A DNA stretch of 31,538 nucleotides, taken from the IMG/VR virus record IMGVR_UViG_3300021354_000022, positions 1 through 31,538 of that record. One strand, given 5' to 3'. A model generated the notes under the pieces. It saw nothing but the letters and a program-made list of their open reading frames with translations. It was not told the DNA's origin and searched no databases. Both the position numbers and the translations under genes were made by a program. This DNA comes from a virus. Lineage: Duplodnaviria > Caudoviricetes. Shown here in pieces: positions 9,366 through 20,412 of this stretch (within the stretch, counting starts at the first letter, position 1; each line of letters begins with the position of its first letter).

Positions 9366-9416
9366 ACTTTTAACGCTTTATCACTATAAACTGCATACAT
9401 CAACAAGGGGAAACAA

Positions 9417-9578
9417 ATGAACTACAAAAACTTTCAAATTGCATACAAGCCAGAGTTAAACACTTATGTAATTATTGACAGTAAGTTTAATCAAGAAATT
9501 AAATGTAAATCTGTTCAAGCTTGTAAAGTGCGTATTTCTAAACTTATTGCTTCTCGCCAGCGTTTTGCAGCGCTTTAA
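9417..9578 (+). CDS. Small hypothetical protein (53 aa)
   Basis: Not in track: MNYKNFQIAYKPELNTYVIIDSKFNQEIKCKSVQACKVRISKLIASRQRFAAL; RBS AAGGGG, upstream TAAACT -10-like hexamer. Confidence 0.65.
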   Translation: MNYKNFQIAYKPELNTYVIIDSKFNQEIKCKSVQACKVRISKLIASRQRFAAL

Positions 9579-10392
9579 TTTGGCTTTCAATTAATTCTCT
9601 GCGGTCTAGTTTGTTTTCAAACTTATCAAGCATCTTTACTTGGGCTGGGTCAAACATAACATAATTGTTAGTGTCCCTGCCTTGACCTTTTACCATTTGC
9701 ATATTTTCATATTTAATTCCAGGTATACCTTGTTCTAAAAGCCATTTAGAGGCATCTGCTTCAGGTGTTTTTGACCCTGCTTGTTTTAAACTAAATGCTA
9801 TTTCTTTATATAATTTTTCGCCTGTAGTTGGCGATATACCGCTACCAAATTGTTCCATTGCTTTAGCAGAAATGCGTTTTCTAGCATCTTCAGGCACTTC
9901 TTCATACCAATTAAGCATTTTTGGTATTAAAGCATCAGGAATATCTACTTTGTAAAGATTGCCTTCTTTTGGCCCAGAAATCGTATTTCTAGAAGCCATA
10001 TACATTCCAGCAACATCAGGGCTTTCAGCAAAATAAATACCATGACCAAAATTGTTTGCTTTTGCACTTGTACCAGCTTTTGTTATGTCAAAACCTTCTT
10101 TTATTACATTTGGAGTGCCATGCCATGCTGTTAAAGCAGCCACATTTGGTACTTCACCCATAAATCTATTAAAAGCGCCTTGGTCAGTTATTTGCATACC
10201 TTGGGGTGTCATTTGCAATGCAGCATCTATGTCTTGGCGTTGTTTTGCAAGGTTTTGCATTGTTTTCTGCGGCAAACTTGCTATATGTTCTGACAATACT
10301 TTAGTCATTGGTGAGTTTACAGGCGTAGGTATGGCTAGTGTCCCATCCTGAGCGTAACCTGTTTGACGCAGTATTTCAGCCAATGTAGGCAT
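9544..10392 (-). CDS. ADP-ribosyltransferase-fold protein (polyvalent-protein ART-like)
   Basis: AWHGT...FGHGIYFAESPDVAGMY...GIPGIKY...NYVMFDP motif series. Confidence 0.75.
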   Translation of the reverse strand: MPTLAEILRQTGYAQDGTLAIPTPVNSPMTKVLSEHIASLPQKTMQNLAKQRQDIDAALQMTPQGMQITDQGAFNRFMGEVPNVAALTAWHGTPNVIKEGFDITKAGTSAKANNFGHGIYFAESPDVAGMYMASRNTISGPKEGNLYKVDIPDALIPKMLNWYEEVPEDARKRISAKAMEQFGSGISPTTGEKLYKEIAFSLKQAGSKTPEADASKWLLEQGIPGIKYENMQMVKGQGRDTNNYVMFDPAQVKMLDKFENKLDRRELIESQIKALQNAGEKQ

Positions 10393-10811: not shown

Positions 10812-11177
10812 TTACTTGAGGTATTTGAGTTTGTAGATAGTAGAGTCAATCAGTTGCTGGATTTCGGCAACAATATTGATAAGTTCTTGTTTTTGCGGCA
10901 AATCTGCGTTGGCTTCTGCCACGAAATTCTTTAATGATTCTAAGTACTTGAGTGCATCTTTAGGCTGATGATAGACACTTGGAAACTCTTTAATCTGCTC
11001 ATAGCAACCCATATAAGCCTCGACATAATCATCTACAAGCTCAATGATTTCATCATAGTATTTGCCCAAAGCCTTATGCTGTGAGTAAGAATTTGTTGCC
11101 CAATGGAAGAAATGAGTATTAGTGCTGCTATGCAATAAAGTAGCGGCAAACATAGCGACATTAGGGGTTTCATTCAT
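10812..11177 (-). CDS. Ferritin/Dps-like four-helix protein (DUF5856-like)
   Basis: HFFHW...HKALGKYYD...VDDYVEAYMG...YKLKYLK. Confidence 0.8.
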   Translation of the reverse strand: MNETPNVAMFAATLLHSSTNTHFFHWATNSYSQHKALGKYYDEIIELVDDYVEAYMGCYEQIKEFPSVYHQPKDALKYLESLKNFVAEANADLPQKQELINIVAEIQQLIDSTIYKLKYLK

Positions 11178-13676: not shown

Positions 13677-14038
13677 TCAATCTCCAAAGTGCATTTGTCG
13701 CCAGAGGCTTTTCTTTCTACAGTTACTTCACATAATCCTTTTACATCTTTGCAAAAATCAGTTATGTAAAGACATAAATTTTCTAATGTTGGTCTGCCTA
13801 AACCTTCAACATTATCTAAAAATTTGTGGTCAAGTCTAATTTTTAATGGGTCAATCACCCAAGCAAAATGCCCAAAATCTTTAACCATTCCATCTTCATT
13901 TGGTTCGCCTCTAACTGAAATGCTTGCATGGTAAGTATGCCCATGTATATTTTCTGATTGCATTTTGGTGTGTACATCCACATACCTACCTTTTAATGTA
14001 TGTGCAGCGTCAAAATAAAATGTTTGTGTAAGTTTCAA
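13673..14038 (-). CDS. queD: 6-carboxy-5,6,7,8-tetrahydropterin synthase (QueD/PTPS family)
   Basis: FDAAH...HGHTY...GMVKDF...LDHKFL...PTLENL; TTG start with GAGGGG RBS. Confidence 0.9.
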   Translation of the reverse strand: MKLTQTFYFDAAHTLKGRYVDVHTKMQSENIHGHTYHASISVRGEPNEDGMVKDFGHFAWVIDPLKIRLDHKFLDNVEGLGRPTLENLCLYITDFCKDVKGLCEVTVERKASGDKCTLEIE

Positions 14039-14772
14039 AATAACCCCTCTTGTTCAACTTGCATAAAATTCCAAGTAGATGGTGCATTATGAGCTTCAAT
14101 TCTTGACCTCATTACTTGCGCTCTAGCTTCTTTTGTTGGGGGTGGGTAATTGCCGTTTTTCCAATTTTTGTCAATTCCTACATTTCTAGCAATGTTTGTG
14201 CTGTCCGTAGAAGCAAAAGGCAATTTAGTAAATATTGCTGGGTCTAACATACGCAGACCATGAAGTTTGCATATTGGCCTACCCATATCATCGCAAATAA
14301 CACGCATTGCTTGACCCATTTTTGACCACCAGGCAGATGTTCCAACTGTAGCGTATTCACCAGAACTACCAATACATACACGCACATAATAATTGGCTAA
14401 TTGTTCCAACCTTTCTAATGATTCATGCATATGCCATACAGGAGCTCCAAACCATTTAGGTAATGGGCAATCTTCAAGCAACGCATCATTGTCAGCCTCT
14501 GTTCCATCAATGACATCAGGAATACAAGCAAAATCACAAGATGGTACTTTTTTAAGGTTTAATGCCCAATCATAATAAGCATCCCAATTAGTAACTGGTT
14601 TACCGCTTTTCCAAGCACTAAAAGCGCCATTGTCTATAGCAAAAGATTGACATACTTCAATTGCTGTGCCAATTTGGTCTGCATGAGCATAAGACACAAA
14701 GGCATGACCAGCTTGTACAGCGTAATTAGCAACTGTGGCTGGGGTTATAGGAAGCCCATGATAATGAATCAT
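14035..14772 (-). CDS. TGT-fold transglycosylase-like protein (DpdA-like)
   Basis: DNGAFS, PDVIDG, PVWH, CIGSSG, LHGL and STDST motifs of the TGT/DpdA barrel; overlaps queD. Confidence 0.7.
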   Translation of the reverse strand: MIHYHGLPITPATVANYAVQAGHAFVSYAHADQIGTAIEVCQSFAIDNGAFSAWKSGKPVTNWDAYYDWALNLKKVPSCDFACIPDVIDGTEADNDALLEDCPLPKWFGAPVWHMHESLERLEQLANYYVRVCIGSSGEYATVGTSAWWSKMGQAMRVICDDMGRPICKLHGLRMLDPAIFTKLPFASTDSTNIARNVGIDKNWKNGNYPPPTKEARAQVMRSRIEAHNAPSTWNFMQVEQEGLF

Positions 14773-16743: not shown

Positions 16744-17469
16744 TTACTCTTTTATATCTTCCTCTGCCATGTGGCAAAAAATACCGCATTGTATGTCTTG
16801 TTCTTGGGGATAATTACCAGCTTCAGGTGGCAATTCATCCAAATATACATCTTTTAAAACTGTTTGTTTCTTTTTGCGCTCAAGTTGAGCCATACGGTCA
16901 AATTGCACAGGAAAGTCTACTTTAATCTTATTCCAATAGCCTTTACCGCCTTTAACGCAACCAATACAGTTGTTGTTATGGTAGCCTAGCTTATACATAA
17001 CTGGAAGCTCTATACCAGCGTTTTGAAGCATTGCAAGGCAATCTACTTTACCAAGTCCTTTATCAATTAAAGGCGCTTTAGCATCAATATTATTGGCATC
17101 AAGAAAACGGTCATAGCGGTCTTGTTCTTCCATCGTATAGCCAAATACTTGAATATCTGTAGGTTGCTCAAATTTAAGCCTAACATCCTTTTTTAGTTTT
17201 CTAGTGCATGGGCTTGCACCTTTAATATTCATGGCTGAAGTTTCAAAACACTTATAAATTGACCTTTCATAACGGTCATTGCCCAAAATAAGTATTTTTT
17301 GACCAAACCATTTTTCGCAATCAGCAAGAAAACGCTTGTTATCAAAGTGTTCTTCAATTACTTCTGTGTACACAACAATAACTTCTTTGTCTTTAAATTG
17401 TGCTAAAGCCAACTTTGTAGCTACAGCACTAGCAGCGCCACAAGAAAACCAACAAACAACTCTAGGCAT
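16744..17469 (-). CDS. PAPS-reductase-like PP-loop (adenine nucleotide alpha-hydrolase) enzyme
   Basis: WFSCGAAS loop, PCTRKLK, GYHNNNCIGCVKGG, C-terminal CGIFC. Confidence 0.8.
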   Translation of the reverse strand: MPRVVCWFSCGAASAVATKLALAQFKDKEVIVVYTEVIEEHFDNKRFLADCEKWFGQKILILGNDRYERSIYKCFETSAMNIKGASPCTRKLKKDVRLKFEQPTDIQVFGYTMEEQDRYDRFLDANNIDAKAPLIDKGLGKVDCLAMLQNAGIELPVMYKLGYHNNNCIGCVKGGKGYWNKIKVDFPVQFDRMAQLERKKKQTVLKDVYLDELPPEAGNYPQEQDIQCGIFCHMAEEDIKE

Positions 17470-18936: not shown

Positions 18937-18955
18937 GCAGTTTAAAGGGGAAAAT

Positions 18956-19702
18956 ATGAGTCAGCATTGGTACTGTGCCATTACAGGCGCACCACGATAT
19001 ACGATGGTCGGCAAAAATGGCAAAGAAAGAAGCGTAACTTTGCGTGATGCCAAAGCAGCGCCAGGTACTTTAGTTCCATCTGTGTCCACCATAAATGGAC
19101 AGCTTTCTAAAGATGGATTAAATACATGGCTTCAAACAGAGGCTATTAAAGCTGCTGCGGAAAATCCTAGGGGTCTACAAGAAGAAGAAAAAGACTACAT
19201 TAGCCGTATTCTTGACTTGTCTAAGAAAAAGTCCCAAGAAGCCATGACTAGGGGAACTCTTATACATGACTTCATAGAGAGCTTTTACAACCAAGAATAC
19301 CTACCAGAGATGCCTACCTATGTCCGCAAGGTAGATGACGCTATAACGGCTCATTTTGGGGCGCAGCTATGGATTGCCGAACAGTCTTTAGTCAATCAAG
19401 AAGGCTATGGTGGTAAGTGCGATTTATATTGCAAAGCAAAGCATGACTTCCCTGGGGTAGTAATTGACTTTAAAACGACAGAAAAATCCCCTGGTGAACT
19501 AACACCCTATCTAGAGCATACACTACAGCTTGCAGCCTATAGAGAAGTTCTAGCACCCCAAGCTAGATGTGCCAATGTCTACATTAATGGCGAAACTGGT
19601 GAGGTTGCAATATACGAACATACAGAGCAAGCCATTAGGGATGGCTATGAAATGTTCCTAAGTCTTTTAAAAATATACAAGCTCAAAACTGGGTTAAACT
19701 AA
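18956..19702 (+). CDS. PD-(D/E)xK exonuclease
   Basis: PSVST, RGTLIH, YGGKCD, IDFKT, QLAAY. Confidence 0.85.
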   Translation: MSQHWYCAITGAPRYTMVGKNGKERSVTLRDAKAAPGTLVPSVSTINGQLSKDGLNTWLQTEAIKAAAENPRGLQEEEKDYISRILDLSKKKSQEAMTRGTLIHDFIESFYNQEYLPEMPTYVRKVDDAITAHFGAQLWIAEQSLVNQEGYGGKCDLYCKAKHDFPGVVIDFKTTEKSPGELTPYLEHTLQLAAYREVLAPQARCANVYINGETGEVAIYEHTEQAIRDGYEMFLSLLKIYKLKTGLN

Positions 19703-19707
19703 ACAAT

Positions 19708-19767
19708 GAGGTGGTAGGTGTGCTTTCCCCTTTGCACAACCATACATTCACGGAGTCCTGCCACCTC
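19708..19767 (+). ncRNA. Candidate anti-Shine-Dalgarno sRNA hairpin
   Basis: 11-bp stem (19708-19718/19757-19767) enclosing UGUGC-UUUCCCCUUU-GCACA. Confidence 0.6.
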
Positions 19768-19778
19768 GCCTCTTTTCA

Positions 19779-19866
19779 AGGGCGTTAAGCCGCCATAACA
19801 GGATGCAGTAAGTTAGGGTTTTTGCGGCTTTCCACCTAATAGCTAGTAACTGCCAAATGTTGCCCT
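19779..19866 (+). ncRNA. Candidate pseudoknotted RNA
   Basis: Nested stems AGGGC/GCCCU, AACA/UGUU, GCAGU/ACUGC, UUAGG/CCUAA; loop GCGGCUU pairs with upstream AAGCCGC. Confidence 0.55.
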
Positions 19867-19875
19867 ATATATTTT

Positions 19876-19907
19876 GTATATACATTGATGCCTATATGTA
19901 TAAAAAA
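19876..19907 (+). repeat. 32-bp inverted repeat, right copy
   Basis: GTATATACATTGATGCCTATATGTATAAAAAA. Confidence 0.85.
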
Positions 19908-20020
19908 TTGCACTTTCTATGCTTGTCAATGTCACATTTTTGCATGATTTTTTCTTTAAATTTCATGCACTTACAACAATAAATTTTTTATGTGGTTTTT
20001 GTTTCTCATAGTTTACAAAT

Positions 20021-20056
20021 TGTTGTTTTTTTGCCAAATTAAGGGTAAACACCTAT
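20021..20056 (+). promoter_or_regulatory. Operator plus TTAAGGGTAAACACCTAT box
   Basis: TGTTGT-TTTTTT-GCCAA, then a box matching 9348-9365. Confidence 0.6.
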
Positions 20057-20092
20057 TAAAAACACTTACAAATAAGAATAAATTTTACTCAT

Positions 20093-20166
20093 AGCAGGTC
20101 TTGACACTATTCAGCTCTATGGCTCTTTGAGATTTCAGACTAAAAAGACCTGACCTGCTTTTTTTT
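20093..20166 (+). terminator. Structured leader/sRNA ending in a terminator-like U-tract
   Basis: AGCAGGTC...GACCTGCT followed by a T-run; alternative pairing CAGGTCTT/AAGACCTG. Confidence 0.5.
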
Positions 20167-20175
20167 AAAGGAATT

Positions 20176-20412
20176 ATGGAAACTTATGTAAGGCGAGTGT
20201 TTGAAGGTGAAGCGCCATGCGACAAATGCGACCAAGCTCAAACCTGTCAAGACAATGAATGGGCTTGTAGGGCGTTTTCTTTTTATGTATTGCATGGCGT
20301 TTTTGAGGACTACACGGCTCGTATGCCATCTAGAGAAATGTTTATTAAAATTTTTAAAGAAGATGACAAAGCTCTTAAAAACTATTTAAAAGCTATAAGG
20401 GAAAAGAAATGA
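20176..20412 (+). CDS. Cys-rich hypothetical protein
   Basis: PCDKC...C...C; RBS AAGGA. Confidence 0.65.
   Translation: METYVRRVFEGEAPCDKCDQAQTCQDNEWACRAFSFYVLHGVFEDYTARMPSREMFIKIFKEDDKALKNYLKAIREKK

Follow-up and report, generated by a model that had tools for sequence, protein, structure and literature searches.

A knotted non-coding RNA gene of phages and its distant kinship with the Atu_At1 family

The stretch of DNA considered here (the window) is a virus record of 31.5 kb and 92% completeness, in which terminase, portal and endolysin genes are present. Starting 77 nt past the stop codon of its exonuclease gene lies a segment for which an earlier note had drawn four nested stems and a loop-to-junction pairing, offering as possible roles a riboswitch-like element, a ribozyme, a nuclease-resistant end or a protein decoy. 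The locus thus raises the questions of whether this segment is an RNA gene in its own right, whether it has relatives among catalogued RNAs, and what it might do for a phage.

Fold and covariation of the RNA

Positions 19779-19866 are a real, tightly knotted non-coding RNA gene, in which all four stems and the pseudoknot covary (Table 1). The nested stems and the perfect 7-bp pairing drawn in the earlier note are present in the sequence, and every one of these helices is borne out by comparison with other copies. In alignment A1, which comprises 109 distinct close copies picked by sequence pattern rather than by pairing, both sides vary in 18 of the 27 pairs and the pseudoknot cells are paired in 763 of 763 cases. 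Alignment A2 holds 39 of 40 diverse copies (L757, with a long insertion, was omitted), pre-filtered for at least 6 of 7 pseudoknot and at least 3 of 4 P2 pairs; here both sides vary in 23 of the 27 pairs, 272 of 273 pseudoknot cells are paired, and pairing drops to 37-47% in slid controls. The top 20 column pairs of A2 by APC mutual information are all helix pairs, one of them being a one-pair extension of P1. Relaxed scans, in which only the unpaired core bases and two A-U pairs were fixed, five pseudoknot pairs were free and matches were unfiltered for pairing, returned a complete 7/7 pseudoknot in 55 of 76 and in 35 of 44 distinct matches, in many different sequences. G-U cells exceed A-C cells by 73 to 4 in A1 and by 29 to 3 in A2, an excess that assigns the RNA to the plus strand, as had been proposed from its G-U pairs. 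Within the window, the AAGCCGC..GCGGCUU pair arose in 1 of 100 shuffles and the folding energy is unremarkable (MFE z = 0.43), the MFE structure taking the pseudoknot helix as a nested stem; computed energies are -16.4 kcal/mol for nested P1-P4 and -10.9 kcal/mol for the pseudoknot duplex.

Table 1. Coordinates of the RNA, its structural elements and its neighbours in the window
Feature	Position	Strand	Remarks
PD-(D/E)XK (Cas4-like) exonuclease gene	18956..19702	+	closes the Erf-SSB-exonuclease operon, upstream of the pseudoknot RNA, which sits in the operon's 3' array
Anti-SD hairpin	19708..19767	+	loop 19724-19733; separate neighbouring module of the same array, of which the pseudoknot RNA is independent
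At1-like pseudoknotted ncRNA, whole	19779..19866	+	88 nt; 5' and 3' ends pair together
P1	19779-19783 / 19862-19866	+	5/5 pairs vary on both sides
Bulge G8-U9-Y10-[AAGCCGC]-C18	19784..19794	+	contains the pseudoknot 5' strand, 19787-19793
P2	19797-19800 / 19858-19861	+	predicted coaxial on P1
Internal loop, 4x4	GGAU 19801..19804 / YAAA 19854-19857	+	near-invariant among phage copies
P3	19805-19809 / 19849-19853	+	5/5 pairs vary on both sides in A2
P4	19812-19817 / 19835-19840	+	covarying; P3/P4 hinge accepts insertions and rearrangement
UUUU, pseudoknot 3' strand and U55-C56	19820..19832	+	UUUU is the predicted third strand of a triple helix
Pseudoknot, 7 bp	AAGCCGC 19787-19793 / GCGGCUU 19824-19830	+	loop-to-junction pairing

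Helix sequences drift, and what stays fixed is a core of about 24 nucleotides that comprises G-U-Y-A-A, C18, UUUU and UUUC, plus GGAU/YAAA in phages. The bulge of 13 nt has the layout G8-U9-Y10-A-A-N5-C18-N2, with seven of its bases pairing into the loop of P4, itself laid out as NN-UUUU-N5-UU-UC-NN. Since the pseudoknot strands always match each other, we regard them as structural elements and not as guides. This bears on the possibility of an Hfq-type base-pairing sRNA resembling the adjoining anti-SD modules, for which the arrays common with anti-SD loop modules and a CUUUCC run in L4 of the window might speak; it is made highly improbable by loops that vary only in step with their internal partner, and by the fact that the sole long single strand, J4/3, is conserved in neither sequence nor length.

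Several invariant columns were forced by the search patterns, and the unbiased check on them is provided by copies found via the exonuclease protein: the 39 distinct copies of that set show six core changes in total, two of them in one apparently decayed copy. A scan with other spacings gave 88 distinct matches, in 9 of which all five free pairs matched; six of these look like genuine members, their P3/P4 hinge being longer or rearranged, and the model confirms two. Hinge variants include L757, L838, L776 and L780. Taken with the few core changes, the altered P3/P4 of these apparent members indicates that plasticity belongs to the hinge and not to the core.

Comparison of columns also points to finer features of the fold. 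A 3' spacer between P1 and P2 is absent, and the two helices are likely to stack. A lone G8-C18 pair likely closes the bulge loop, as suggested by one compensatory event in which G8/C18 became A/U in a rhizobial copy (L928). Likewise, columns U47/A12/U53, which read UAU in 32 of 33 rows, read CGC in one rhizobial copy (L925), and this single event, being the change expected of a major-groove triple, supports a likely U47/A12/U53 base triple. Helix lengths are compatible with a predicted arrangement of two side-by-side stacks, P1-P2-P3 on one side and P4 with the pseudoknot on the other, in which case A-form geometry would bring GUYAA, UUUU, UUUC and the GGAU/YAAA loop together at one level.

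Distribution and genomic contexts in phages

Of 80 loci found through the exonuclease protein, 71 carry the RNA, 2 are truncated and 7 are without it within 1.5 kb. In total we collected 369 instances (filtered for pairing), representing 174 distinct cores in 33 sequence clusters and occurring in unrelated gene contexts. The window has a single copy, as has each of 13 carrier records searched with the model, and the model did not find the RNA in the close relatives G416 (87% complete) and G417 (92%). Twelve carrier records fall into groups with few common protein families, none of which is carrier-specific, and the only near-universal protein cluster among carrier records is tail-fibre-like and is present in non-carriers too.

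Phages of the exonuclease type usually carry the RNA at the end of a variable array whose other modules are anti-SD hairpins, loop-E-like stems and, in some cases, tRNA-Asn; array copies often precede U-rich tracts. Elsewhere the RNA sits 1-2 nt past other stop codons, ahead of HNH/terminase-type genes, behind a capsid-like gene or flanked by opposite-strand genes. A -10 box lies 4-8 nt ahead of P1 in 12 of the 20 clusters outside exonuclease arrays, against 1.35 expected on the basis of offset windows, and in none of the 13 exonuclease-array clusters, and a terminator-like hairpin directly follows P1 in five copies of one group (L582, L581, L591, L607 and L638), three of which (L581, L591 and L638) have both promoter and terminator and lack a same-strand ORF of at least 30 aa within 300 nt. 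Its single copy, scattered contexts and own promoters, together with the few genes common to its carriers, mean that the RNA behaves as a mobile stand-alone gene. It is an accessory gene in groups of uncultured phages with few common genes, and is independent of the anti-SD hairpin.

The next gene lies on the same strand in 23 of the 33 clusters, where a cis role is possible, and on the opposite strand in 9. One such role would be that of an end protector or processing signal, the knot stopping exonucleases at the 3' end of the early operon or, for an operon lying downstream, at its 5' end, which would fit a final position in exonuclease-operon arrays, often before U-rich tracts, a start directly after other stop codons, and elsewhere a leading position in HNH/terminase-type operons. 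We consider this unlikely, given that the three copies with both promoter and terminator leave nothing to protect, that the rhizobial homolog At1 (see below) is a discrete RNA, and that the conserved core much exceeds the needs of end protection. A second cis role, a riboswitch controlling the downstream gene (for example through preQ0/preQ1), could draw on a few phage copies near a start codon (L586, L622 and L644) and on the position of At1, which precedes ligD by 51 nt on the same strand. Downstream genes are nevertheless unrelated or convergent, a conserved alternative pairing was not seen, and a TGT-like gene occurs in only 1 of the 14 phage records compared, so that the preQ0/preQ1 idea of the earlier note is not supported. 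A consistent position 5' of functionally related same-strand genes, expected of the preQ1 classes as of a new riboswitch class, was not found, and without a fixed downstream gene the riboswitch-like reading proposed earlier becomes extremely unlikely.

We also looked for a phage gene that might be the partner of the RNA. The TGT-like and PAPS-reductase-like genes were rejected, as they occur in a single record of 14, and an HNH gene is adjacent in only 8 of 33 clusters. A Dps-like gene is found in 24 of 33 related records, but at least six near-complete carriers (G433, G439, G444 and G446-G448) lack it; it is partly present in the non-carrier G417, and G449, in the compared set, is also a non-carrier. 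As to the genes themselves, the TGT-like and PAPS-reductase-like genes of the window (14035-14772 and 16744-17469, both on the minus strand) are absent from the 13 other phage records compared, and suggest a DNA-modification pathway. The window also encodes an ADP-ribosyltransferase-like protein (9544-10392, minus strand) with PARP and ART-PolyVal matches and a relative in G417, and the Dps-like 'starvation-inducible' protein (10812-11177, minus strand) is a second stress-type cargo, which the RNA does not need.

Beyond these records, a full-length match was not found by blastn against annotated phages and plasmids, and the RNA was absent from annotated phage regions around two distant exonuclease relatives. 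A pattern with P3 fixed, run over metagenomes and genomes, gave 239 matches of which 4 are real, the sole one from a genome lying on a 4.8-kb contig with phage genes. In a sample of 401 genomes of one gammaproteobacterial class the strict pattern found none, and a loose pattern matched at background level.

The arrays merit description in their own right. Interchangeable modules follow the exonuclease stop codon at L018, L021, L026, L037, L042, L049, L078, L081, L146 and L255, and among them are stems with a terminal ACC, loop-E-like stems of the GAAAG/AAGUA type whose inserts vary (often being GCUUCACAUAC), tRNA-Asn, and a UCACGG hairpin that recurs; compared with Rfam, only the tRNA matched. 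The arrays look like a cassette system of phage sRNAs. At L056 and L065 an HNH-like gene (judged by eye) is inserted between exonuclease and array, and the RNA of L065, with core changes and a damaged P1, is possibly decaying. In the window, the loop of the anti-SD hairpin, UUUCCCCUUU, is the exact complement of the exonuclease gene's ribosome-binding site (18944-18953) and, if one mismatch is allowed, also complements a site at 9404; this hairpin is kept in relatives, where its stems covary. An AT-rich element of 55-65 bp with the inverted repeat TGCATGA...TCATGCA (window 19919-19985), possibly an operator, promoter or origin, recurs in relatives in either orientation and at shifting positions, sometimes splitting the hairpin from the pseudoknot RNA. 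A further hairpin, GCAGGUC...GACCUGC followed by a U run (20095-20165, plus strand), precedes an ORF at 20176, and similar sequence is found in L033, L035 and L040. Finally, the relaxed scan brought up a different recurring non-coding motif, GCUAAACAAACGAGUAGGGAUG...GCCUACAUCGCCC, in L595, L618, L643, L655, L662 and L694, which fails the RNA model.

Relationship to Rfam RF02496 Atu_At1

At cut-off, the Rfam search that the earlier note had proposed returned only a tRNA for the window and 40 related loci, and a search of the window at E<=10 gave no family. The first sign of kinship, which that note had missed, came in E-value mode from a GC-rich phage copy compared with RF02496. Of 6 phage loci, 3 align with this model over its whole length, with scores of 27.7-33.4 bits, the gathering cut-off being 60 bits. 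Its one match in the window at E<=10 (19774-19867, 12.8 bits, E 0.47) is not significant alone, and at that limit the control also matched in 7 of 14 genomes; with so weak a score, the membership of the window copy rests on intermediate copies. In the reverse direction, phage model R2 aligns At1 end to end (22 bits, E 0.003), and a search of 12 rhizobial loci with the phage model gave 5 matches at E<=1. RF02496 matches were present in 11 of 151 genomes of one rhizobial order, and pseudoknot cells are paired in 83 of 84 cases in 12 rhizobial copies (At1 included) and in 147 of 147 in 21 phage copies.

Atu_At1 and the phage RNA have in common the order P1-P2-P3-P4, the GUYAA-N5-C and UUUU-N5-UUUC core and the 7-bp pseudoknot. 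The rhizobial copies carry an extra J4/3 hairpin (from P4 to the P3 3' strand) that is absent in the window and the aligned phage copies, and the phage copies, at about 88 nt, are AU-richer and have sigma70-type promoters or arrays instead of an EcfG-type motif. Upstream of 9 of the 12 rhizobial copies we find GGAAC-N17-19-TT (2 of 312 control windows), in agreement with the EcfG motif as given in PMC6599016, whereas GGAAC is absent from the 50 nt preceding 19779. At1 itself keeps the GGAU/CAA internal loop, but most other rhizobial copies vary there; as GGAU/YAAA is fixed in phages, the two branches may differ in function. The window RNA is a distant branch of the Atu_At1 lineage, far below the family cut-off. 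The family is already catalogued, and its Rfam structure is without the pseudoknot, triple and lone pair: in the RF02496 consensus the pseudoknot strands are complementary, yet the pseudoknot is omitted and a hairpin is drawn over its 5' strand. A description of the pseudoknot or the phage branch was not found in the literature, where it may be listed among 10,006 viral candidate RNAs (PMC10690425). These results tie an orphan alphaproteobacterial stress sRNA to a large branch in phages that escapes Rfam, and they correct the family structure by adding the covarying pseudoknot of 7 bp, a likely base triple and the lone G-C pair.

What has been reported of At1 bears directly on function. In Agrobacterium, At1 was placed at pAt 55274-55161, with a length of 113 nt in dRNA-seq and of 115 nt on the Northern blot; it is strongest at high density and, in the available part of that report, is not among the RNAs with several bands (PMC3384568). 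A second study, in its accessible text, gives it as pAt_55271R (55271-55154, RACE-validated, about 140 nt on Northern blot), with RPKM values of 45 in log phase, 866 in stationary phase, 3597 in AB medium and 877 in induction medium (PMC3738593). The reported RACE ends coincide with P1. At1 (L921:6162-6275, on pAt of A. fabrum C58) sits in a cluster with two Ku genes and, besides the ligD gene downstream of it, a second ligD; genes of the Ku/LigD type are described as partly controlled by the general stress regulator in S. meliloti (PMC6379672). The genes beside other rhizobial copies differ from one copy to the next, and many are convergent. The supplements of the Hfq paper were searched for At1 and it was not found there, nor did the literature searches yield a function for it.

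In bacteria the RNA is discrete, intact and induced by stress, and in phages it stands alone or forms a module of an array. Both facts speak against a riboswitch and against constitutive self-cleavage, two of the functions offered in the earlier note; of the functions offered there, the protein decoy remains the best. A new class of self-cleaving ribozyme maturing the array might be suggested by the compact pseudoknot with its many invariant bases, and ribozymes have been noted near phage genes, where they may process polycistronic RNA (PMC6765202, in part). We hold it to be very unlikely, as At1 is reported as one near full-length band with RACE ends at P1, promoter-driven stand-alone copies are without upstream RNA to release, a Rfam ribozyme match is absent and the GGAU/YAAA loop varies among rhizobial copies. 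Nor is there support for the idea that the RNA matures the upstream sRNA: many copies have a promoter of their own and lack upstream RNA, some lie 1-2 nt after a stop codon, and the homolog At1 is described as a single full-length band (PMC3384568 and PMC3738593, in the parts available).

Proposed function and comparison with known RNA systems

Our preferred reading, in which we have about even confidence, is that stand-alone RNAs of the At1 lineage are accessory phage genes that would act in trans to bind and titrate a putative host protein of the stress or stationary-phase programme, to which they would present a fixed folded surface. P1-P2-P3 are predicted to form one stack, with P4 and the pseudoknot folding back alongside, and the UUUU would lie in the pseudoknot groove as U.A-U triples, bringing the conserved bases together at one spot. 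As the last array module on the Erf-SSB-exonuclease transcript of the window, the RNA would be excised by host nucleases, a step we infer because hairpin-type RNase P substrates are known (PMC5499578, in part); tRNA modules of sister arrays would be cut out likewise, and elsewhere the RNA has its own promoter. The least certain step is the host-protein partner, proposed because carriers are without a common phage partner gene and the RNA is without a variable guide segment; what the fixed three-dimensional core would then bind is a host factor. A pseudoknot with many highly conserved bases has been called a mark of demanding biochemistry (Weinberg 2017, PMC5737381, in part), and strong selection on the core of about 24 bases, across phages with few common genes, suggests that the RNA has a particular biochemical task.

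A protein and a small-molecule ligand are indistinguishable from sequence, and the core might instead be the pocket of a free-standing aptamer for an alarmone, a defence second messenger or a metal ion, serving as a sponge or sensor that lacks an expression platform. Several riboswitch pockets are lined by U.A-U triplexes, and the convergence of some 24 fixed nucleotides on a pseudoknot/triple-helix junction, like the stress-type promoter motif at rhizobial copies, would be in keeping with such a pocket; a metabolic gene association is lacking, however, and most rhizobial copies do not conserve the internal loop. We also know of no natural stand-alone ligand-sponge RNA, and we regard the aptamer as unlikely. 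A wider and rather improbable reading holds that RNAs of the At1 family work without protein, as sponges or aptamers for a signal of stress or of anti-phage defence, or else inhibit a host enzyme induced by stress (e.g. Ku/LigD end joining, next to whose genes At1 lies), and that unrelated phages captured a streamlined version for use from modular sRNA arrays in overriding host dormancy or defence. If true, this would be the RNA counterpart of phage sponge proteins, and an orphan sRNA would gain a triple-helix pocket and a job.

Among known RNA systems, the small self-cleaving ribozymes (twister, pistol, twister-sister, hatchet, hammerhead, HDV-like and hairpin) are alike in size, pseudoknot, invariant bases and phage context. 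They self-cleave, whereas the homolog At1 is reported to accumulate intact, and the helix order of the At1-like RNA is one that we take to differ from every such class. The earlier judgement by eye that hammerhead, twister and pistol cores do not match holds, since Rfam returned no ribozyme family at E<=10 over 19600-20200, nor at cut-off in the 40 related loci. A packaging RNA of the phi29 type, essential in all members of its group, was rejected on the absence of our RNA from G416, G417 and 7 of 78 untruncated loci, and what we took to be resemblances to a CsrA site, an SRP loop, the L11 domain, loop A of the hairpin ribozyme and pRNA were dropped.

Closer in biology are C4 RNA of phages P1/P7 and CI RNA of P4, which act through antisense loops. 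Unlike them, the At1-like RNA has no free variable loop, and a Rfam C4 match was not found in the window or the related loci. C4 and CI are small stable phage RNAs released from longer transcripts, as the At1-like RNA would be in the arrays, and are described as RNase P-type hairpin substrates (PMC5499578, in part); array modules here end in a stem followed by ACC, and several At1-like copies do likewise.

A type III antitoxin or pseudo-antitoxin as such was rejected, as tandem short repeats are absent, the RNA is single-copy and annotated neighbours are not toxins; in particular, a toxin gene was not found beside rhizobial copies with annotated neighbours. Pseudo-ToxI of phage PhiTE, described as a mimic of a type III antitoxin (PMC3475682, in part), is a short expanding repeat, whereas the At1-like RNA is a single copy with five helices. 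Both are nonetheless phage-borne relatives of a bacterial ncRNA, and pseudo-ToxI provides a precedent for an RNA decoy on a host protein.
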